Positions 37,203-53,111 of a stretch of 64,000 bases of DNA are shown here, in pieces. The stretch lies in IMG/VR virus record IMGVR_UViG_3300028805_000037, positions 192,001-256,000 of that record; one strand, written 5' to 3'. The notes beneath the pieces are model-generated. The model did not search any database, was not told where the DNA came from, and worked only from the letters and a program-made list of their open reading frames with translations. The DNA comes from a virus. Its lineage: Duplodnaviria > Caudoviricetes. The translations under genes were made by a program, and so were the position numbers. Within the stretch, counting starts at the first letter, position 1. Each line of letters begins with the position of its first letter.

Positions 37203-37988
37203 ATGAAATTTAGAGTTTTTTCAGATTTACATATTAATATTAATAAAAATAATAATTTATTAAAAGAACTACAAAGAAATGCATCAGATGATGTTTTAAA
37301 TATTATTGCTGGTGATATTTCTGGTAATTGTTTTGAAACAATTAAATGGATTCAAAATTATTGTAAAAAAGCTTTATTTGTATCTGGAAATCATGAATTA
37401 GCAGCTTATGATGATACAAATGCAATTCAACAAGTAGATAACCATTTTAGAAACCTTTTAAGATCATTTCAATATTATTATTTGCAAAATGATTTTATTA
37501 GTTTTGATGATATTTTATTTGTTGGTTGCACATTATTTACTGATTATGAATATGGTGAATACAATAATGAATATAATCAACGTTTGGCATTAAATTATTT
37601 AAATGATTTTAGGTTTGGAGATTATTTAATTGATGATAAAAAATATCAATTAATGCCACATCATTATAAAGAATTATTTAATAAAAGTTTTGAATTTCTT
37701 AAAAATACAATTGAAAAATATAAAGATTATAAAATTGTAGTAATTACACATCATGGTTGTTCTAGTAAATCTATATTAGATAAATATCAAAATCATAAAT
37801 TAAATGCATCATTTATAAGTGATCTTGATGATTTTATTTTAAATCATCAACAAATAAAGTATTGGATTCATGGACATCTTCATAGCAATAGCGATTATAA
37901 AATAGGAAATACAAGAATAATATGTAATCCTTTAGGTTATATAAATGAAAATACAAATTTTAATCCTAATTTAATTTTAGAATTATGA
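37203..37988 (+). CDS. calcineurin-like metallophosphoesterase
   Basis: SDLH, AGDI, GNHE, THH, HGHLH, CNPLGY. Confidence 0.9.
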   Translation: MKFRVFSDLHININKNNNLLKELQRNASDDVLNIIAGDISGNCFETIKWIQNYCKKALFVSGNHELAAYDDTNAIQQVDNHFRNLLRSFQYYYLQNDFISFDDILFVGCTLFTDYEYGEYNNEYNQRLALNYLNDFRFGDYLIDDKKYQLMPHHYKELFNKSFEFLKNTIEKYKDYKIVVITHHGCSSKSILDKYQNHKLNASFISDLDDFILNHQQIKYWIHGHLHSNSDYKIGNTRIICNPLGYINENTNFNPNLILEL

Positions 37989-43227: not shown

Positions 43228-43683
43228 ATGAGCTTTGTAGTAGAAGAACAATATCTAACATTAAAATTTCAAAAATTGACAGAAAATGCAAAAACCCCAG
43301 TAAGAGGAACTAAATTTTCTTCTGGTTTAGATGTTTTTTCAACTGGAGATTATGATATTCCAGCAAGAGGAGATGTTTTAATTCCATTAGATTTAAGATT
43401 TGAAATTCCTATAGGTTGGGATTTATCAGTATATAATAAATCAGGTATGTCAACAAAATTAAAATTAGATAAAGGTGCAGAATTAATTGATTCAGATTAT
43501 CGTGGTAATTGTCATGTGCATTTATTTAATAATTCAGATAATGTTATACATATAGAAAAAGGGCAAAAAATAGCGCAATTAGTAATGAGAAAAGTTTGGT
43601 TAGGAAATGTTGAAGAAGTAAAAGAAATATCTACTGATACAAGTAGAGGTCAAGGTGGTTTTGGATCAACTGGAAAATTTTAA
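43228..43683 (+). CDS. dut: trimeric dUTPase
   Basis: SGLD, KSG, IDSDYRG, KIAQ, RGQGGFGSTG. Confidence 0.93.
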   Translation: MSFVVEEQYLTLKFQKLTENAKTPVRGTKFSSGLDVFSTGDYDIPARGDVLIPLDLRFEIPIGWDLSVYNKSGMSTKLKLDKGAELIDSDYRGNCHVHLFNNSDNVIHIEKGQKIAQLVMRKVWLGNVEEVKEISTDTSRGQGGFGSTGKF

Positions 43684-44838: not shown

Positions 44839-45339
44839 ATGAATAAAATAATTATAATAGAAGGTATATCACGTGTAGGTAAAACTACATTATGTAATAA
44901 AATTAATAAATTATATAATATACCAATATATAAACATAATAATAAAATAATAAATTATTCTGAAATGAATGATAAAAATGAAGTAGAAAAAATGATGGTT
45001 ATGTTAGACGTATATAGAACTATACCATCAAATATAATATTTGATAGATTTCATTTTTCAAATGCAGTTTATGGTATTTTATTAAGAAATTATGATGTTA
45101 ATGAATCTATTAATAATATTAAAAAGATTGAAAAATATATTAAATCTGTGAATTCTAGATGTATTTTAATTAAAGTTAGTCCTACAGATATTAAAGAATC
45201 TTCAAGACAATATGGTAGAGATTTAACAGAATTTGAAAATTATTTTCAAAAATTATATAATATATCAATATTAGAAAAATATAATTGTAATTATAATAAT
45301 CAAGATCAATTAATCAAAAAATTAAATTTAGGAGTTTAA
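44839..45339 (+). CDS. dNMP kinase (thymidylate-kinase-like)
   Basis: IEGISRVGKTT, FDRFHFSNAVYG. Confidence 0.88.
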   Translation: MNKIIIIEGISRVGKTTLCNKINKLYNIPIYKHNNKIINYSEMNDKNEVEKMMVMLDVYRTIPSNIIFDRFHFSNAVYGILLRNYDVNESINNIKKIEKYIKSVNSRCILIKVSPTDIKESSRQYGRDLTEFENYFQKLYNISILEKYNCNYNNQDQLIKKLNLGV

Positions 45340-46440
45340 ATGAATATTTTATATTTTTATTGGGGATTTCTTGGTGATGTAAAATATAAACCAAATGGAG
45401 AATTAGGTAGTTTTCCTGATGGTAATGCATTTTATTCTTGGTCAATAATACATGAATTACAAAAAAGAAATAATGATGTATATATTATTGAAGATAGAGA
45501 TAAAATAGGTTATGAAAAGTTTAATAAAGATTTATTTCATTCATTTGCTCAGAATAAAAGATGTGAATGTTATAGAAAATTAAAGATTTTTAATAAAAAT
45601 GTAAAAATAAATTATGCTATAATTGAATGGAGATGGCCAATACCTGGAAGAAATACATTAGATGTTAAAGGTACTAATATTTATCAACCAGATTTAGAAT
45701 ATATGCAAAATTGTATTGATTATTGTAATAATAATAAAATACCATTTATTATTTTTGATTTAGATTATAAATTACAATATGAAGATATAAAGAAGTATGA
45801 TATCAAATATATAATTGAATTAGGTAATAAATGGAATAAACTTTATGGTGATATTAAAGCTACAAGAGTAGAGATACCATTTGATTTTTCTTGTATTAAT
45901 GAAAAACCAATAAAAATGGAAAATTTTGAAAATGATTGTATTTATATTGGTTCACGTTATGAAAGAGATTGGTGTATGCATTATTTACCAAAAGGAACAG
46001 TTGTACATGGTAATTGGTTAGAACCAGGTCATGGAGATCCAGTAAATGAATTTCCAAATTTAGTATTTAAAAAGAGGTTATCAGCATCTGAAATTTTTGA
46101 ACCATATAATAATAGTATAGCAACTGTATTATTAGCTAAAAAAGAATATTGTAGTAAACAATTTATGACAGCACGTATACAAGAAGCAATTTTTTATGGA
46201 ACAGTACCATTATTTATTAGAGAATATGGTAAAGAATTAATTAATAAATATGCTGGAAAATATAGTAACATTTTAGTAGTAGCTTCAGATGAAGATGTTA
46301 AAATGAAAATAGATATATTTAAAACACGTCCAGAATTAAGAAAACAAATAATAATGTATTTACGTAAATATTTAAGATTTATGGATTGCAAATTTTTTGT
46401 TGATGATATACAAGAGTTAATAGGAGTTCAGAATGTATGA
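45340..46440 (+). CDS. GT-B DNA glycosyltransferase, T4 beta-glucosyltransferase-like
   Basis: IIFDLD, DCIYIGSRYER, HGNW, SIATVLLAKKEY..QFMTARIQEA, ELRKQII, colinear with T4 BGT as recalled. Confidence 0.75.
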   Translation: MNILYFYWGFLGDVKYKPNGELGSFPDGNAFYSWSIIHELQKRNNDVYIIEDRDKIGYEKFNKDLFHSFAQNKRCECYRKLKIFNKNVKINYAIIEWRWPIPGRNTLDVKGTNIYQPDLEYMQNCIDYCNNNKIPFIIFDLDYKLQYEDIKKYDIKYIIELGNKWNKLYGDIKATRVEIPFDFSCINEKPIKMENFENDCIYIGSRYERDWCMHYLPKGTVVHGNWLEPGHGDPVNEFPNLVFKKRLSASEIFEPYNNSIATVLLAKKEYCSKQFMTARIQEAIFYGTVPLFIREYGKELINKYAGKYSNILVVASDEDVKMKIDIFKTRPELRKQIIMYLRKYLRFMDCKFFVDDIQELIGVQNV

Positions 46441-48490
46441 TTATCTTATAGTTGGTTCAGGATTATATGGCAGTTTTGCAGCATTTTTGTTAACACAAAA
46501 AGGCAAAAAATGTTTAGTTATTGATAAACGAAATCATATAGGTGGTAATGTATATAATGAAAGAAAAGATGATATAGATATACATATTTATGGACCACAT
46601 ATATTTCATACATCAAATAAAGAATTGTGGAATTTTTTAAATAAATATATTAAATTTAATAATTTTATAAATCAACCATTAGCTATATATAAAAATGAAA
46701 TTTATAATTTACCATTTAATATGAATACATTTTCAAAAATGTGGAATATACAAACTCCAAAACAAGTACAAGAAATTATTTATAAACAAAAGCAAGAAAT
46801 AATAAATGAACCAAAAAATCTTGAAGAACAAGCAATAAGTTTAGTTGGTAGAGATATTTATGAAAAATTAATTAAAGGTTATACTGAAAAACAATGGGGA
46901 AAATCTTGCATAGAATTAGATAAGAATATAATAAAAAGATTACCAGTAAGATATACTTATGATAATAATTATTTTAATGATATATATCAAGGTATACCAA
47001 TTAATGGTTATAATGAACTAATAAATATATTTTTAAGTAAATGTGATGTGAAATTAAATATTAAATTTGATTATAGTAATAAAAAAGAATTAGAGAAATT
47101 AGCAAAAAAAATTATATATACTGGTTCACTTGATGAATTATATAATTATCAACTTGGTAAATTAGAATATAGGTCTTTAAAATTTGATACTTATTCTTTA
47201 CAAGAAGTTAATTATCAAGGTAATGCTGTAATTAATTATACTGAATATGAAATACCTTATACCAGAATTATAGAACATAAACATTTTAATAAATATCAGA
47301 AAGGTTATATAAATCCTATAACATATTTAACAAAAGAATATCCTATTAAATTTGAAGAAGGTTTAGAAAGATTTTATCCAATAAATAATGAAATAAATAA
47401 TCAATTATATCAAAAATATGTTGATTTAATTAATCAAGATAAAAAGTATATTTTTGGTGGTAGATTAGCAGAATATAAATATTATGATATGGATAAAGTT
47501 TTAATTAAATGTAAAGAAGATATAGATAAAATTTTAAAAATTAAAGATAACATTAAAATTAAAACTAGAGTTAAAAAAGAAAAAACAAATGTTATTAGTA
47601 ATGAAGAAATTTTAGGCTATTTAAAACAAACACAAGATATAAATACTTTAGAATATCCTGTATGTATACCAACTGTTCATAATAGAGAAAAATCAGTATT
47701 AAAATTATTAGATAATTTTGGTAATACAAAAATATTTTTATTTATTATACCTAATGAAGTTCAATTATATAATTATTTAAATAAATCAAATATTATTAAA
47801 GTTATATTACCAGAAGAATATGTTGGTTCAATACAAAAAGCAAGAAAATATATACAAGAATATATGGATAAACAAAATATTGATTTATATCATTGTATAG
47901 ATGATGATGTTGTTGGTTTTATGTTAATTAATAAAACAATAGATTGTAGTGTTTCTCAAGGTTTAAGAGTTCTAGAGTTATTTTCAAAAACTATTGAATT
48001 TTCATCATTAAGTTATTGTTTCAATGATATAAGTTGTAAATTTTGGAATGGTGAAAAATATGGTGAAGTTTTAACAGCAGTTCAATATTTATTTAATAAT
48101 AAAAAATTAAAAGAATTAAATTTAAGATTTACTGGACAATCTGATTTAAATGAAGATTTAGAATTTACTGTAAATTCATTGTTATATACTAATCTTCCAA
48201 CAAAAGTTTTAAGATGGGGATTAATAAAACAAGCTTATGCAGCTGGAGGTAAAGATTCAATAGCATCATCAAATAATTTACATTTATTATATCAAACAAA
48301 TAATTATTTAAAATTTGGTAATTATTTAAAATTTCATAAAGATATACGTGGTTTTAGAACAAATATTAATTATAGTAAAATTAAAAAAGATAAAAAGAAT
48401 AATAACATTAAAATAGAATATGATGAAAATTTATATAATATGTGTATAAGCAGAAATTATGAAGGATTAATTAAATATGTACAACAATAA
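46433..48490 (+). CDS. glf: UDP-galactopyranose mutase fused to a GT-A (TAGT/GREB1-like) glycosyltransferase
   Basis: N-terminal GSGLYG, HIGGN, YGPHIFHT, YTEKQWG, YQGIP, RIIEHKHF, GRLAEYKYYDMD; C-terminal (from ~47654) YPVCIPT..R, ARKYI, IDDD, NED, AGG. Confidence 0.9.
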   Translation: MYDYLIVGSGLYGSFAAFLLTQKGKKCLVIDKRNHIGGNVYNERKDDIDIHIYGPHIFHTSNKELWNFLNKYIKFNNFINQPLAIYKNEIYNLPFNMNTFSKMWNIQTPKQVQEIIYKQKQEIINEPKNLEEQAISLVGRDIYEKLIKGYTEKQWGKSCIELDKNIIKRLPVRYTYDNNYFNDIYQGIPINGYNELINIFLSKCDVKLNIKFDYSNKKELEKLAKKIIYTGSLDELYNYQLGKLEYRSLKFDTYSLQEVNYQGNAVINYTEYEIPYTRIIEHKHFNKYQKGYINPITYLTKEYPIKFEEGLERFYPINNEINNQLYQKYVDLINQDKKYIFGGRLAEYKYYDMDKVLIKCKEDIDKILKIKDNIKIKTRVKKEKTNVISNEEILGYLKQTQDINTLEYPVCIPTVHNREKSVLKLLDNFGNTKIFLFIIPNEVQLYNYLNKSNIIKVILPEEYVGSIQKARKYIQEYMDKQNIDLYHCIDDDVVGFMLINKTIDCSVSQGLRVLELFSKTIEFSSLSYCFNDISCKFWNGEKYGEVLTAVQYLFNNKKLKELNLRFTGQSDLNEDLEFTVNSLLYTNLPTKVLRWGLIKQAYAAGGKDSIASSNNLHLLYQTNNYLKFGNYLKFHKDIRGFRTNINYSKIKKDKKNNNIKIEYDENLYNMCISRNYEGLIKYVQQ

Positions 48491-48920
48491 GCAAATAAGA
48501 GAATTTAATTTTTTTATGAAATCAGCTTTATTGGCAGCACAAAATTCTTATGCAATTAGAAATAAAGTTGGTGCCGTATTTGTTAGAGATGGAAGAATTA
48601 TAAGTAGTGGTTGGAACGGTCAGCCTAAAGGTTTTGATAATTGTTGTGAAGAAAAATTAGAAGATGGTTCATTAAAAACATTACCAACAGTTATACATGC
48701 TGAAGCAAATGCGTTATGTTTTTGTGCAAAAAATGGTATATCATTAAAAGATTGTGATGCCTTTATTACATTAAGTCCTTGTATGAATTGTGCATTATTA
48801 TTAATACAAGCTGGTATTAAAAATGTTTATTATTATGAAGATTATAGAGATAATGGTGGTATTAAATTATTAAATAATGTCGGAATTAAATGTGAAAATA
48901 TTAAGGAGTATATTAAATGA
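48477..48920 (+). CDS. dCMP deaminase
   Basis: KVGA, GWNG, HAEANA, LSPCMNC. Confidence 0.93.
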   Translation: MYNNKQIREFNFFMKSALLAAQNSYAIRNKVGAVFVRDGRIISSGWNGQPKGFDNCCEEKLEDGSLKTLPTVIHAEANALCFCAKNGISLKDCDAFITLSPCMNCALLLIQAGIKNVYYYEDYRDNGGIKLLNNVGIKCENIKEYIK

Positions 48921-49651
48921 AAAATGAAGAAATAATATTACCATATTTTAAAGAATTAAAAAGAAAAAAAGATAATGGTAAATTTAAAATTGATAAAACT
49001 GGAGTAAAAACAGTTGAAATTAGAAATTGCCATATAGATGGATTAAATCCGTTACAACCAATATTAGAATTTCCTGGAAGAAAAACTCCAGAAAATTATG
49101 TAAAAAAAGAATCTAATTGGTATAATAGTTGTTCATTAAATATTAATGGTTATGTTGATGATGTAAAAATTTGGAAACAAGTTAGTGATAATGATGGTTT
49201 TGTAAATAGTAATTATGGTTGGTGTATATATTCAAAAGAAAATTATAAACAATATAATCATGTTTTAAAAGAATTAATTAATAATAATTGTTCTAGAAGA
49301 GCATCAATGATTTATAATAGACCATCAATGTGGATTGAATATAATCAAGATGGTATGAATGAATTTATGTGTACTTATGCAGTTCAATATGATATTACAG
49401 ATAATGAATTAAATGCTATTGTATATATGCGGTCGAATGATAGTCAATATGGGTTCTTTAATGATCTAGCTTGGCAGTGTGAAGTATATATGAAATTATA
49501 TAATGATTTAAAGAAACATTATAAAGATTTACAAATAGGTGTAATAGATTGGAATTCTGGTAGTTGGCATATTTATGAAAGACATTTTGAAATGTTAGAT
49601 AAAATATGTACTTATGAGGTTAAAAATGAAGAACCAAAAATCAATAATTAA
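48917..49651 (+). CDS. dCMP hydroxymethylase (T4 gp42-like, thymidylate synthase fold)
   Basis: DKTGVKT, NSNYGW, SRRASMIYNRPSM, DGMNEFMCT, MRSND..GFFND.AWQ, HIYERHF. Confidence 0.88.
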   Translation: MKNEEIILPYFKELKRKKDNGKFKIDKTGVKTVEIRNCHIDGLNPLQPILEFPGRKTPENYVKKESNWYNSCSLNINGYVDDVKIWKQVSDNDGFVNSNYGWCIYSKENYKQYNHVLKELINNNCSRRASMIYNRPSMWIEYNQDGMNEFMCTYAVQYDITDNELNAIVYMRSNDSQYGFFNDLAWQCEVYMKLYNDLKKHYKDLQIGVIDWNSGSWHIYERHFEMLDKICTYEVKNEEPKINN

Positions 49652-50024: not shown

Positions 50025-51131
50025 ATGATAAATGCAAGTTTTGAACAAATTGAAAAAGTAGAAAAACATCCTAATGCAGATAAATTAGATATAATTACAG
50101 TTTCAGGTTATACAGTAGTTTCACAAAAAGATACACATAAAGTAGGGGATACTGTGTTTTTTATTCGTGAAGATAGTCAAATACTTGTTGATGAACAAAA
50201 GTTTCCTTGGCATACAGGAGTTAAAACATATTTAGGTAAAAGTGGTAGAGTTAAAACAATTAAATTAAGGGGAATATTTAGTTCGGGCATTGTATTAAAT
50301 GCCGAAAAAGTATTAGAATCATATTTTAAAAATAACGGTCTTAAACGATATACCTTAGTAAGATATGAAATAAATAAAAGGTTGGAAGATGAAAAGTTCC
50401 TTGAAGAAAATTTTGGTATTAAACATTATGTACCACCAGCAGTTGGTGCAAGTTTTGGCAATTTACAAATGATAGGAACTATACCATTTGGTATACCAAA
50501 AACAGATGAAGAAAATGTACAAAATATAGATAAATCAGAATTACCATTTGGTGAAGAAGTTTTAGTTACAAGAAAACTTGATGGTACAAGTTGTACAGTA
50601 ATATTTGATAATGATGGTAAATATCATATTTGTGGTAGGAATTATGAATATAAATTAGGTCAAGATAATATTTATGAAAGAACAACTAAACAATTAATAG
50701 ATTTAATATTAGAAATAGGTTTTTATAAACAATTAAAAGAAAATGAACATTTAGTTATACAAGGTGAGGTTGCAGGCAAAGGAATACAATCAAATAAAAT
50801 AAACAAAATTAGTCAAATAGAAGAACCAAGATTTTATATATTTAGAACAATGTTATGGAATGATAAAGATAGAACAAAAGTTGATTGGGGCAATTATGGT
50901 AGTAAATATCATTTTTTTAAAATTAGAAGACAATTAGTTGAAGAAGAATTTAGAAAAAATAAAACTAATAGTGTAGTATATTGTGTTCCTATATTAGGTA
51001 GAGAAATATTAACAGAAGAAATGGTGCAAAAATATATAAATGCACCTGCAGAAGAAGGTGAAGGCGTAGTAATTAACCACAAAAAAGGACATTTTAAGAT
51101 TAAGTCATTAGATTACATAAGTAAATTTTAG
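50025..51131 (+). CDS. RNA ligase, Rnl2/DRB0094-type with N-terminal OB module
   Basis: HPNADKL, KLRGIFSSG, PKTDEE, KLDGTS, QGE, EGVV, FKIKS. Confidence 0.88.
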   Translation: MINASFEQIEKVEKHPNADKLDIITVSGYTVVSQKDTHKVGDTVFFIREDSQILVDEQKFPWHTGVKTYLGKSGRVKTIKLRGIFSSGIVLNAEKVLESYFKNNGLKRYTLVRYEINKRLEDEKFLEENFGIKHYVPPAVGASFGNLQMIGTIPFGIPKTDEENVQNIDKSELPFGEEVLVTRKLDGTSCTVIFDNDGKYHICGRNYEYKLGQDNIYERTTKQLIDLILEIGFYKQLKENEHLVIQGEVAGKGIQSNKINKISQIEEPRFYIFRTMLWNDKDRTKVDWGNYGSKYHFFKIRRQLVEEEFRKNKTNSVVYCVPILGREILTEEMVQKYINAPAEEGEGVVINHKKGHFKIKSLDYISKF

Positions 51132-51152
51132 GAAAAAGGAAAAATTAAAATA

Positions 51153-51722
51153 GTGGAAAAGAAAATATTTATAATAAGTGATACTCATTTTTGGCATACA
51201 AGAATAATCAGATTTGAAAATCGTCCATTTAAATCAGTAGAAGAAATGAATGAAGAACTCATCAAAAGATGGAATTCTAAAGTGTCTAATAATGATACTG
51301 TTATTCATTTAGGTGATTTTTGTTTTGGAAATAAAGAAAAGACTCAAGATATTGCACAAAGATTAAATGGTAAGAAAATACTTATAATGGGAAATCATGA
51401 CGACTCTAGAAATGTAAAATGGTTTATAGATTGCGGCTTTGATGAAGTTTATAGGTATTCTATACTTTTTCAAAATTATTTTATTCTTTCTCATGAACCT
51501 ATTGCTTATTTAAAAGCACCATTTGTGAATCTTTATGGTCATGTTCATGGTAGTCCCAATAATCCAACATTCACTAAAAATAGTGTATGTTGTTGTGTAG
51601 AAAGATGGAATTATGCGCCTATAAATTTTACTACAATAATGAGGAATATAGAAAAATTACAAAGACAAATTGATGCAACTATGATTAACTTTGAATCTTC
51701 AGAAACAATAGAAGAACAATAA
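51153..51722 (+). CDS. calcineurin-like phosphoesterase
   Basis: SDTHFWH, LGDF, GNHD, SHEP, GHVH. Confidence 0.9.
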   Translation: MEKKIFIISDTHFWHTRIIRFENRPFKSVEEMNEELIKRWNSKVSNNDTVIHLGDFCFGNKEKTQDIAQRLNGKKILIMGNHDDSRNVKWFIDCGFDEVYRYSILFQNYFILSHEPIAYLKAPFVNLYGHVHGSPNNPTFTKNSVCCCVERWNYAPINFTTIMRNIEKLQRQIDATMINFESSETIEEQ

Positions 51723-51738
51723 ATTTAAATTTTAAAAA

Positions 51739-52020
51739 ATGAAACAAATTAATCAAACCCAATTCTATGCTAAAATTCTTTTAAAATTACATAAAATTTT
51801 ATCAATTTATGAAGGTAAAATTTTATGTAGAGAGATTTCTGAAAAAATAGAGAATGATATAAAAGAATTTTATAAACAATTAAAAATTAAATATAAAAGT
51901 ATTTTAAATATAAGATATTTAAATGAACTCATTAAACAGCCAATTCATTATAAAGTAAGATATCATACATTATTAAGTATACAGATTGATATAGATTTAA
52001 AGAGGTTATTTAAAAAATGA
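51739..52020 (+). CDS. hypothetical protein
   Basis: ORF overlapping next start. Confidence 0.55.
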   Translation: MKQINQTQFYAKILLKLHKILSIYEGKILCREISEKIENDIKEFYKQLKIKYKSILNIRYLNELIKQPIHYKVRYHTLLSIQIDIDLKRLFKK

Positions 52021-53111
52021 ATTTAGAAGTATTAGAATTTATTAATAATAATAAAAACTGGAAAGAAATTCTTGAAAAAAATCCATATAATATAAAAATT
52101 AAAGAAGAAGATAATTTTATTATATTAAATTATTCTCAAGTTGAAAGTGATTTTTCATTAAGAATAGTACAAGAATGTAGAGGATTAATTTTAGTTAAAG
52201 AAGATAATAAATATATTCCAGTATGTATTCCATTTTTTAAGTTTTTTAATTATGGTGAAAAATATGCAAGTAAAATTGATTGGAATTCAGCACAAGTTCA
52301 AGAAAAAATTGACGGTTCATTAATTAAAATATGGTTTTATAAAGATAAAATGCATATATCTACAAATAGTATGATTGATGCATTTAAAGCTACTATAGCA
52401 TTACCTACTGATAATTTTAAAACTTATGGTGATTTAGTAATATATTGTTTAAATTCATTTTATAAAATAGAAGAGTTTAATAAAGATTACACGTATATGT
52501 TTGAATTAGTTTCACCTTATACAAGAATAGTAGTTCCTTATAAAGAAATAAAATTATTTTATTTGGGACAAAGAAATAATAAAACATTTAATGAGATGAA
52601 TTTAAGAAATTTTTATAATTATGTACCTAAGTTATATAATATATCAATATTAAGTGATTGTGTAAATAATGCTAATAAATTGCCTAAAGATAAAGAAGGA
52701 TATGTAGTAGTTGATGAAAGATTTAATAGAATAAAAGTAAAATCACCTGTTTATGTAGCTATGCATCATATAAGAACAAATGTGGCAACCGAAAAATCAA
52801 TATTAGAATTGATAAGAAAAAATGAAATAGATGAATTTACAAATTATTTTCCAGAATATAAAAATGTTTCACAACAAATAAAAGATAAATATAATAATGC
52901 ATGTGCAGACATAGCAAATTGTTATTTGTTTGTTGAAATGAAAGTAAAAAATTTAAAAACAAGAAAAGAACAAGCACAACTTATAATGCAAAATTTTAAA
53001 AATTGTTCAGATTTTGCATTTAGTTATCTTGATGGAAGAGTTAAAGGAATAGAAGAATTCATTAAAAATTTGAGTTTAGAAAAATTATTGAAGCGATTGG
53101 AGAATTATTAA
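52017..53111 (+). CDS. T4 Rnl1-type RNA ligase
   Basis: ECRGLIL, FFKFFNYGE, EKIDGSL, FELVSP, EGYVV, RIKVKS. Confidence 0.9.
   Translation: MNLEVLEFINNNKNWKEILEKNPYNIKIKEEDNFIILNYSQVESDFSLRIVQECRGLILVKEDNKYIPVCIPFFKFFNYGEKYASKIDWNSAQVQEKIDGSLIKIWFYKDKMHISTNSMIDAFKATIALPTDNFKTYGDLVIYCLNSFYKIEEFNKDYTYMFELVSPYTRIVVPYKEIKLFYLGQRNNKTFNEMNLRNFYNYVPKLYNISILSDCVNNANKLPKDKEGYVVVDERFNRIKVKSPVYVAMHHIRTNVATEKSILELIRKNEIDEFTNYFPEYKNVSQQIKDKYNNACADIANCYLFVEMKVKNLKTRKEQAQLIMQNFKNCSDFAFSYLDGRVKGIEEFIKNLSLEKLLKRLENY

Follow-up and report, generated by a model that had tools for sequence, protein, structure and literature searches.

A UDP-galactopyranose mutase fused to a TAGT-superfamily GT-A glycosyltransferase in a phage hydroxymethylcytosine operon, a candidate for galactofuranose transfer onto DNA

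A 64,000-nucleotide stretch (here called the window) of a 300-kb, AT-rich gut phage genome that is not T4-like contains one open reading frame in which a UDP-galactopyranose mutase (Glf) is joined to a GT-A glycosyltransferase. Which sugar does this protein transfer, and onto what? The original prediction held that the mutase supplies scarce UDP-galactofuranose (UDP-Galf) to the transferase and that the fusion thereby marks the GT-A as the galactofuranosyltransferase, in the context of 5-hydroxymethylcytosine (hmC) DNA.

We found the predicted layout in full, namely, a single ORF with an intact mutase, a Lys-rich linker, and a GT-A domain containing IDDD (Table 1). The linker reads KILKIKDNIKIKTRVKKEKTNV, and Lys occurs 11 times in aa 356 to 405 of the fusion. 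No in-frame ATG, GTG, or TTG was found from the end of the mutase to the first strand of the GT-A, so the GT-A is produced only as part of the fusion. The same fusion is carried by P0001 (691 aa, ENA), with 95% identity to the ORF of the window, and by P0002 (681 aa, Logan), with 89% identity and a linker indel that keeps the reading frame. A survey of how often the fusion occurs, suggested along with the original prediction, thus yielded three assemblies with 89 to 95% identity, all from one lineage. The Glf-GT-A fusion is real and very rare, seen only in this lineage; the mutases are stand-alone proteins of ~365 to 425 aa in all solved structures, in all Atlas clusters, and in all of the best 80 viral homologues examined. 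Our searches brought up no earlier description of a mutase fused to a transferase.

Table 1. Features of the operon and of the fusion ORF, with window coordinates
Feature	Position	Strand	Evidence or detail
dUTPase-family enzyme (nucleotide pools), 5' of the operon	43228..43683	+	Pfam dUTPase 4e-26
Thymidylate-kinase-like (Tmk-like) P-loop nucleotide kinase, first gene of the operon	44839..45339	+	phrog_761 1.5e-14; weak Pfam Thymidylate_kin, AAA
GT-B glycosyltransferase, 366 aa, T4 BGT/AGT-like	45340..46440	+	AlphaFold, PDB matches
Fusion ORF, 685 aa	46433..48490	+	AGGAG 8 nt 5' of ATG
UDP-galactopyranose mutase (Glf) domain, aa 1-365	46433..47527	+	FAD-binding GSGLYG at 46454-46471
Lys-rich interdomain linker, aa 366-387	47528..47593	+	Without in-frame start codon
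TAGT-superfamily GT-A domain, putative DNA glycosyltransferase, aa 388-685	47594..48490	+	Motif, fold, profile evidence
GT-A motif residues	R418, R471; DDD aa 490-492 (47900-47908); ED aa 574-575 (48152-48157)	+	
dCMP deaminase	48477..48920	+	Pfam dCMP_cyt_deam_1 2e-23; phrog_174 4e-55
T4 gp42-type dCMP hydroxymethylase, predicted source of the 5-hmdCMP precursor	48917..49651	+	3e-53 to T4 1b49

Judged by its sequence, the N-terminal half is an intact UDP-galactopyranose mutase. Pfam NAD_binding_8 matched aa 6 to 71 (2e-19), and GLF (PF03275) matched aa 145 to 350 (5.5e-68, 229 bits against a cut-off of 26.3). The domain aligned colinearly, over its full length, with the solved bacterial mutases of Campylobacter jejuni (4mo2; aa 1 to 357, 9e-132) and Escherichia coli (Glf, 1i8t; aa 1 to 360, 3e-128). 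Their FAD and substrate motifs are kept: the N-terminal FAD Rossmann motif GSGLYG (aa 8 to 13), RLPVRYTYDNNYFND, YTRIIEHKHF, YPIN, and GGRLAEYKYYDMD are all conserved, as is RLPVRY among the substrate- or flavin-site blocks. What sets the mutase of the window apart from these enzymes is the 320-aa transferase at its C terminus. UDP-galactopyranose (UDP-Galp) is favored 11:1 over UDP-Galf at equilibrium (PMC7278926), an established ratio that agrees with the strong bias assumed in the original prediction. At support values of 0.05 to 0.63, a Glf tree could place the fused mutase neither with TAGT-linked nor with GT-B-linked mutases.

We then analyzed the C-terminal half (aa ~388 to 685), which AlphaFold modeled as a GT-A fold with a pLDDT of 93, the first 15 residues of the model having a low pLDDT. 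IDDD occupies aa 489 to 492 of the fusion, and in an alignment of 33 homologues, DDD120-122 was invariant and R48, R101, and E204 were near-invariant; these positions correspond to D490-492, R418, R471, and E574 (then D575) of the fusion. The earlier assignment of this half as a GT-A with a DxD motif thus stands, and its R…DDD…ED motif matches the active-site motif published for DNA GT-As, R…DDD…ED(Y/F) (Pyle et al., bioRxiv 10.1101/2023.12.21.572611). At the profile level, phrog_842 matched the fusion protein at 2.7e-5, the domain alone at 4.4e-6, and 24 of its 33 relatives. Pfam TAGT (PF20691) gave no match to the fusion protein itself at E values up to 0.1 and matched 18/33 homologues, the best at 1.8e-11. 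Aligned by hhalign with canonical TAGTs, the family reached a probability of 94.5% (E value of 7.5e-8 over 242 columns) against their alignment and a weak 14% against one TAGT sequence. The top structural matches in BFVD were TAGT-domain proteins and a Klebsiella phage beta-glucosyl-HMC-alpha-GT (E values of 4e-12 to 1.5e-8, TM scores of 0.66 to 0.77). On the basis of its fold, its motif, the family-level Pfam and PHROG matches, and hhalign, we assign the GT-A half, as a divergent member, to the TAGT/T6 beta-glucosyl-HMC-alpha-glucosyltransferase superfamily.

Known TAGT/T6-type enzymes glycosylate hmC or glucosyl-hmC in DNA, and the GT-A half resembles the T2/T6 beta-glucosyl-HMC-alpha-glucosyltransferases and TAGTs (PF20691, phrog_842) not only in fold and motif but also in being phage encoded near 5hmC-making enzymes. 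It differs from them in belonging to a small, divergent branch and in being covalently fused to a sugar-nucleotide mutase, and whereas their donors are UDP-Glc or UDP-HexNAc, its predicted donor is probably UDP-Galf. The family of the GT-A half comprises 44 clusters among 1.84 billion representatives. Searches with the GT-A half returned no meaningful sequence match to any PDB chain, a single partial match (Nonlabens phage P12024L) by tblastn against 50,697 phage records, and no relative in a JGI metagenome scan or in a viral scan with alignment A4. The sole relative in a second metagenome scan (L096) is a close stand-alone family member located directly before a TS homologue.

The fusion is the third gene of a five-gene operon with stop/start overlaps, consisting of a Tmk-like kinase, a GT-B, the fusion, a dCMP deaminase (overlapping the 3' end of the fusion by 14 nt), and a gp42-type hydroxymethylase. 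The last, two genes downstream of the fusion, is the only TS-family gene of the genome. A published rule separates hmC from 5-hydroxycytosine (5hoC) synthases by Asp versus Asn (5hoC) at the equivalent of ThyA D169, together with Asp at N177 and an acidic residue at L143 (PMC13326640). In the hydroxymethylase, with its motifs NEFMCT and MRSNDSQYGFFND, the residue matching L143 is acidic and those matching D169 and N177 are both Asp, so it is of the hmC type and not of the 5hoC type. It also carries the hmC-type RSND…D signature, and the hmC context of the original prediction was therefore borne out. As in the T4 hmC pathway (gp42, Cd, kinase, and alpha- and beta-glucosyltransferases), a gp42-type hydroxymethylase (46% identity) is accompanied by a dCMP deaminase and a BGT/AGT-like GT-B, and hmC would be made before replication and its sugar added afterwards. 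Beyond what the T4 pathway has, the operon includes a mutase for making the sugar donor and a further transferase, the GT-A, all in one compact unit. The phage genome encodes no GalE-type epimerase, so UDP-Galp must be supplied by the host. A GT2-GT2-TPR protein is also encoded in this genome.

The GT-B directly upstream of the fusion was modeled with a pLDDT of 92.5, and its best PDB matches were T4 BGT (1c3j; E value of 8e-10, TM scores of 0.63/0.69) and T4 AGT (1y8z). A tblastn search with it against phage records gave no match. Its family has at least 938 proteins, and one of them (P0130) is joined in a single protein with an hmC-type TS homologue. The GT-B gene lies directly 5' of an hmC-type TS homologue in 29 of 41 IMG/VR loci, and a homologous Tmk-like kinase lies 5' of the GT-B in about 37/41 related loci. 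The GT-B is the probable base-proximal hmC transferase.

The fusion of a UDP-Galf-making enzyme to a T6/TET-type DNA glycosyltransferase, inside an hmC operon, makes galactofuranose (Galf) decoration of the phage's own DNA the most likely outcome. We propose, at a probability a little better than even (about 0.55), that the fusion is a bifunctional protein of a hypermodification operon whose tethered GT-A transfers Galf onto phage hmC DNA, most likely onto a sugar present on hmC. The gp42-like enzyme would make 5-hydroxymethyl-dCMP, which kinases would convert to the triphosphate for incorporation into phage DNA. After replication, the BGT-like GT-B would add a first sugar to the hydroxymethyl group. 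The FAD mutase domain would contract host UDP-Galp to UDP-Galf, which the tethered GT-A (with DDD binding Mn/Mg and ED as the candidate base) would use on the spot to transfer Galf, probably in beta linkage. The acceptor is probably a sugar already on hmC, direct transfer to hmC being less likely: the T6 TAGT puts a second glucose on glucosyl-hmC (PMC13390438), and by analogy glycosyl-hmC probably receives its second sugar from the GT-A. The tether would hold the 11:1-disfavored donor near its consumer, and UDP-Galf may, as we infer, be channeled from the mutase to the GT-A. The resulting glycan on hmC would contain a furanose and would protect the DNA against nucleases of the host. The more specific version, in which the mutase hands UDP-Galf directly to the tethered transferase and the outcome is a beta-galactofuranose-containing disaccharide or a di-Galf unit on hmC, is possible but falls clearly short of even odds.

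No sequence or structural feature identifying the sugar donor of the GT-A was found. GlfT2 (4fix, Z of 11.9) and GfsA (8yrl, Z of 10.9) share with it a GT-A fold with DxD and the predicted donor, but the similarity is generic, 148 chains having a Z of 8 or more and dozens of GT-As being as close; both act on lipid or glycan acceptors rather than DNA and have no fused mutase. The repeated adjacency of Glf and TAGT genes in other phages supports Galf transfer by the GT-A. A TAGT-type GT-A was found near Glf in 7 of the best 80 viral Glf loci examined. Three loci (L035, L036, and L048) are ParB-TAGT-Glf cassettes with overlapping genes and without any GT-B, and in four (L038, L041, L063, and L070) a TAGT-type GT-A and Glf lie within 3 kb. 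Another locus (L088) has two members of the GT-A family directly 5' of Glf, inside a replication module. In a quickly built tree of the GT-A family, these two copies and the fused clade were apart and not sisters, so there is no single "Galf clade." Most family members (L004, L085-L087, and L089-L091) had no Glf in reach, and a TS-family search in five contigs of the GT-A family was negative throughout, a result of little weight since these contigs are only 12 to 85% complete.

These data uphold the original prediction in part. The TAGT/T6 homology places the GT-A among DNA-glycosylating enzymes and the Glf-TAGT pairs speak for it as a galactofuranosyltransferase, but the fusion does not single it out as the sole user of Galf, because Glf also adjoins the same GT-B family in two loci. 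One (L097) has a stand-alone Glf directly after a GT-B 58% identical to that of the window, and the other (L115) has a divergent Glf directly before the GT-B. That the neighboring GT-B uses Galf is equally plausible, and it may use UDP-Galf in addition to, or instead of, the GT-A.

In its strict form, this alternative makes the upstream BGT-like GT-B the real or main galactofuranosyltransferase, placing Galf directly on hmC, with the fused GT-A extending the glycan by another sugar (glucose taken from UDP-Glc, for example, in the manner of T6); the fusion would then reflect coexpression or complex formation and not donor delivery to the GT-A. The order GT-B then Glf in the window is that of L097, no TAGT-like GT-A was detected within ±7 kb in L097 or L115, and the characterized T6 relative of the GT-A uses UDP-glucose. 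In Rhizobium phage RL38J1 (Pootjesviridae), whose DNA contains a galactose-glucose-glucose cytosine, galactose is the base-proximal sugar and the glucoses are the outer ones (PMC13326640). However, the covalent fusion is kept in three diverged genomes in which the GT-A is never made alone, which makes little sense without a coupling of the two activities, and the ParB-TAGT-Glf cassettes manage without any GT-B. Moreover, L097 is not a clean GT-B-only case, since a GT25 GT-A lies 2.7 kb downstream of its Glf. We consider the strict form doubtful. The two readings are compatible in that both transferases could use UDP-Galf. Two proteins of no assigned family that follow Glf in L097 (324 and 406 aa) were tried as GT-A family members and rejected. 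Across the loci examined, Glf recurs as an accessory in phage cassettes for DNA glycosylation of two unrelated kinds, TAGT type and BGT type, and a wider range of DNA glycans is to be expected.

Could the fusion act off DNA, with Galf going onto a virion protein, a small molecule, or a polymer of the host envelope (teichoic acid or lipopolysaccharide, compare prophage TarP)? The closest solved structures to the GT-A model are TarP, TarS, RmlT, and the LH3 glycosyltransferase domain, whose acceptors are polyol-phosphate polymers or proteins, and most of the best 80 viral Glf loci lack DNA-modification genes by the profiles used. Yet TarP has also been reported as the best PDB match of proven DNA GT-As, and the GT-A half is homologous to the TAGT and T6 DNA transferases. 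The operon of overlapping genes that contains the ORF has a BGT-like GT-B on one side of it and the dCMP deaminase and hydroxymethylase genes on the other, and neighbors of the GT-A family include TS homologues, DNA methyltransferases, ParB, and replication genes. An off-DNA role is thus quite improbable.

Slightly less probable still is that the mutase domain converts another UDP-sugar, either UDP-arabinopyranose to UDP-arabinofuranose or UDP-GalNAc, so that the transferred sugar is not Galf. The best PDB match, 4mo2, is a C. jejuni UDP-galactopyranose mutase that we take to be bifunctional for Gal and GalNAc, and bacterial UDP-galactopyranose mutases have minor activity on UDP-arabinose. However, the mutase half resembles E. 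coli Glf in carrying His59 and Lys168, where 4mo2 has Arg59 and Arg168; these positions presumably play a role in GalNAc recognition. Arabinofuranose has been proven to occur on phage DNA (PMC13326640), but the dedicated route by which RB69-type phages produce UDP-Araf is a different one, and it was not seen in the phage of the window. As for an assembly artefact, which the original prediction had named as grounds for its own rejection, a gene-calling artefact, or a pseudo-fusion in decay with one of its halves dead, nothing was found in favor beyond the fact that only three sequences carry the fusion, and the idea is dismissed in silico by the preservation of one frame across the linker indel in three independent assemblies (P0001 and P0002 besides the window), with all conserved motifs kept in both halves and a C-terminal half that models with high confidence.

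Whether a given host nuclease or CRISPR system can cut a phage depends on the sugars that the phage DNA carries. Galf on DNA has so far only been a proposal, for RL38J1 on 5-hydroxycytosine, and no paper in the searchable literature shows Galf on hmC; if the more specific version of our main reading is true, its Galf-containing disaccharide or di-Galf unit on hmC would be a DNA modification without prior chemical demonstration. The fusion extends known phage DNA glycosylation, the fused mutase-GT-A form being the new element, and it would be a compact way around the equilibrium against UDP-Galf. If active on hmC or glycosyl-hmC DNA, it would also provide a one-protein reagent for furanose tagging from cheap UDP-galactose, with a sugar absent from mammals. 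RL38J1 offers a further comparison: its Glf was proposed to supply UDP-Galf for DNA glycosylation (PMC13326640), and as in the window, a phage-encoded mutase accompanies a cluster of a Tmk-like kinase, a glycosyltransferase, and a TS homologue. Its base is 5-hydroxycytosine, unlike that predicted for the phage of the window, and is made by a D169N synthase, gp216 showing RSQN as expected for a 5hoC synthase. RL38J1 has neither a TAGT-type GT-A nor the fusion; its glycosyltransferases are of GT-B types, and a profile comparison of the GT-B family of the window with gp215 showed no similarity. The RL38J1 Glf is a stand-alone protein encoded about 60 kb from the glycosyltransferase cluster.

The fusion of a UDP-galactopyranose mutase (Glf) to a GT-A glycosyltransferase lies in an IMG/VR virus record of 300,445 bp that is 98% complete (CheckV) and has a G+C content of 26%, versus ∼22% in the window (bases 192001-256000 of the record). 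Its ATG is preceded by AGGAG 8 nt upstream. The mutase half (amino acids [aa] 1 to 367, phrog_9677 in PHROGs) contains the Pfam domains NAD_binding_8 (aa 6 to 71) and GLF (aa 145 to 350; 5.5e-68), and the solved mutases 4mo2 (E 9e-132) and 1i8t (E 3e-128) match it end to end, with every long conserved block intact. A Lys-rich linker follows (aa 366 to 387), then a region with a weak match (2.7e-5) to phrog_842, "beta-glucosyl-HMC-alpha-glucosyltransferase" (aa 407 to 581), in which the IDDD motif occupies aa 489 to 492. Pfam, alignment, and motif positions thus bear out the original prediction of an intact mutase, a K-rich linker, and a GT-A domain with IDDD in one ORF.

We then asked whether the fusion could be an assembly artefact, and how frequent it is. 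Among 5.8 billion proteins searched with the C-terminal half, we found two further fused-length proteins, P0001 (691 aa, ENA) and P0002 (681 aa, Logan), with 95% and 89% identity, respectively, which carry the same mutase at their N terminus. The frame is kept in P0002 despite an indel in the linker, and we conclude that the fusion is real. Because in-frame start codons (ATG, GTG, or TTG) are absent from the linker DNA, the GT-A half can be produced only as part of the fusion. The architecture is very rare: no Glf ORF exceeded 424 aa among the best 80 of 199 IMG/VR Glf loci, JGI metagenome contigs held no close relative of the C-terminal half, and the mutase clusters of the ESM Atlas were all stand-alone, with no fused one.

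The fusion is the third of five consecutive genes on one strand, in which each stop codon overlaps or abuts the start codon of the next gene.

Genes of the modification operon (window coordinates)
Feature	Position	Strand	Order	Remark
Thymidylate-kinase-like kinase	44839-45339		1	
GT-B glycosyltransferase	45340-46440		2	366 aa
Glf-GT-A fusion ORF	46433..48490	+	3	685 aa
dCMP deaminase	48477-48920		4	after fusion
Thymidylate synthase (TS) homologue	48917-49651		5	T4 gp42-type dCMP hydroxymethylase; 3e-53 to 1b49

The TS homologue, the only TS-family gene of the phage genome, has Asp at the equivalents of ThyA D169 and N177 and Glu at that of L143. According to the rule that separates hydroxymethylcytosine (hmC) synthases from 5-hydroxycytosine synthases at these positions (PMC13326640), it is an hmC synthase. 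The GT-B has no useful Pfam match, and its model (pLDDT 92.5) most resembles T4 beta-glucosyltransferase (1c3j; E 8e-10, TM 0.63/0.69) and T4 alpha-glucosyltransferase. Its family comprises at least 938 proteins, and in 41 IMG/VR loci the family gene has an hmC-type TS homologue directly 3' (29 loci) and a homologous kinase 5' (about 37 loci), which makes the GT-B the central hmC-glycosylating enzyme of a module that is widespread. The window's lineage differs in having the fusion and deaminase genes between GT-B and hydroxymethylase. One family member, P0130 (613 aa, Logan), is naturally fused to an hmC-type TS homologue (motif MRSNDLWMGFPYD), so that the hmC-glycosylation pathway offers two architectures in which a precursor-making enzyme is joined to a transferase. 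The operon is flanked by a dUTPase-family gene and genes for DNA ligase, exonuclease, and RNA ligases; RNA ligase genes and calcineurin-like phosphoesterases (Pfam RNA_ligase, Metallophos) lie beside it at 50025-53111 and 37203-37988.

We then analyzed the GT-A half. When 1.84 billion representatives were searched exhaustively with HMMER, just 44 clusters of relatives emerged, each stand-alone and of ∼300 aa. The family alignment showed that the DDD and Tyr76 are invariant and that Arg48, Arg101, and Glu204 are nearly so; R…DDD…ED is the pattern reported for phage GT-As that glycosylate 5hmC in DNA (bioRxiv 10.1101/2023.12.21.572611). The AlphaFold model built with this alignment (pLDDT 93) is a plain GT-A, with TarP, the LH3 glycosyltransferase domain, RmlT, TarS, and SpsA as top Foldseek matches among solved structures; TarP is also the best PDB match of the reported 5hmC-DNA GT-As (bioRxiv 10.1101/2023.12.21.572611). 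VIA-align gave Z 12-14 to many GT-A enzymes, among which the galactofuranosyltransferases GlfT2 (Z 11.9) and GfsA (Z 10.9) were not outstanding. The comparison with predicted viral structures was specific: TET-associated glycosyltransferases (TAGTs) ranked at the top, together with a beta-glucosyl-HMC-alpha-glucosyltransferase from a Klebsiella phage (E down to 4e-12, TM 0.66-0.77). Of 33 family members, 24 matched phrog_842 and 18 matched Pfam TAGT (best 1.8e-11); the window's own domain had no Pfam TAGT match. Aligned with canonical TAGTs by hhalign, the family scored 94.5% probability (E 7.5e-8, 242 columns). The GT-A half is probably a DNA transferase of the hmC pathway.

The original prediction held that the fusion marks the GT-A as the galactofuranosyltransferase. 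Pairings in other viruses favor this: a TAGT-superfamily GT-A lies within ∼3 kb of Glf in 7 of 80 viral Glf loci (best 80 of 199), far above chance, given that Glf occurs in just ∼200 of 2.9 million viral contigs. Three loci have overlapping genes in the order ParB-TAGT-Glf beside terminase, with no GT-B in sight; in these small phages, the run is directly 5' of terminase at the contig start (L035:117-3716, L036, L048:423-3070). At L088, two copies of the window's GT-A family are directly 5' of Glf, surrounded by DHFR, DnaB, two DNA methyltransferases, clamp loader, and polymerase. Right after GT-A-GT-A-Glf on this 87-kb phage contig, TnpB/IS605 OrfB and a complete flagellin gene (Flagellin_N, Flagellin_C) sit within the replication/DNA-modification module (L088:12198-15246). 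At L096, a close stand-alone GT-A family member lies directly 5' of a TS homologue; this locus (L096:3-4137) also contains a carbamoyltransferase, an AAA_28 kinase-like protein, and an unassigned 254-aa protein, and an additional modification of the sugar or base by the carbamoyltransferase is conceivable. Another run, L041:9959-15015 (also L038, L063, and L070), consists of Glf, a GNAT acetyltransferase, an unassigned gene, an ATP-grasp enzyme, a GT-A of TAGT-like type, and a PLP-dependent decarboxylase, and looks like a more elaborate DNA hypermodification combining galactofuranose (Galf) with an amino-acid-derived group.

Other loci speak against the exclusivity of that assignment, and the GT-B is also a candidate user of UDP-Galf. 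The 262-kb phage L097 has a GT-B 58% identical to the window's with a stand-alone Glf directly 3' (and, another 2.7 kb away, a GT25 enzyme), L115 has a divergent Glf directly 5' of its GT-B, and no TAGT-like GT-A is within reach at either locus. For most members of the GT-A family, Glf is absent from the neighborhood, and neither the GT-A-family tree nor the Glf tree connects the clade of fusions with one kind of partner or the other. UDP-Galf is at best slightly favored as the donor of the GT-A. The L115 run (L115:5024-11836) comprises a radical-SAM/SPASM enzyme, the Glf-like mutase (GLF 1e-25), the BGT-like GT-B, an hmC-type TS homologue, and DNA polymerase III alpha. The divergence of this mutase and its pairing with a radical-SAM enzyme suggest that the sugar chemistry differs there.

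We propose that the mutase feeds DNA glycosylation (probability about 0.85). hmC would be made before replication, and GT-B would add the first sugar, which may itself be Galf. The fusion would then turn UDP-Galp, host-derived since the phage encodes no GalE-type epimerase, into UDP-Galf and consume it immediately, the first sugar on hmC being the most likely acceptor. As the original prediction stated, the mutase equilibrium lies against UDP-Galf, by 11:1 (PMC7278926), which makes a tethered consumer a sensible arrangement; channelling is hypothetical. In T6-like phages, a TAGT enzyme is held to put a second glucose on alpha-glucosyl-hmC, giving a beta-1,6 gentiobiosyl base (PMC13390438). Since this relative forms its beta linkage with a UDP-alpha-sugar as donor, the fusion is expected to yield beta-Galf.

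The T4-type hmC pathway, BGT-like GT-Bs, TAGT-type GT-As, and Glf are known kinds, and the fusion is a new arrangement of them, its architecture well supported and its predicted chemistry unproven. In the literature searched, only PMC13326640 links galactofuranose to phage DNA hypermodification, proposing a use of Glf for the DNA of RL38J1, a phage that modifies 5-hydroxycytosine and has a stand-alone Glf far from its GT-B transferases, whereas here Glf is fused to GT-A in an operon with an hmC-type synthase. That literature contained no description of a mutase-transferase fusion, and Pyle et al. (bioRxiv 10.1101/2023.12.21.572611) mention neither mutase nor fusion. Another possible consumer of nucleotide sugars lies elsewhere in this phage genome, outside the window and next to a helicase: a protein of 573 aa that combines two GT2 domains with TPR repeats (G000:C1:49371-51090; L095:1429-3150).
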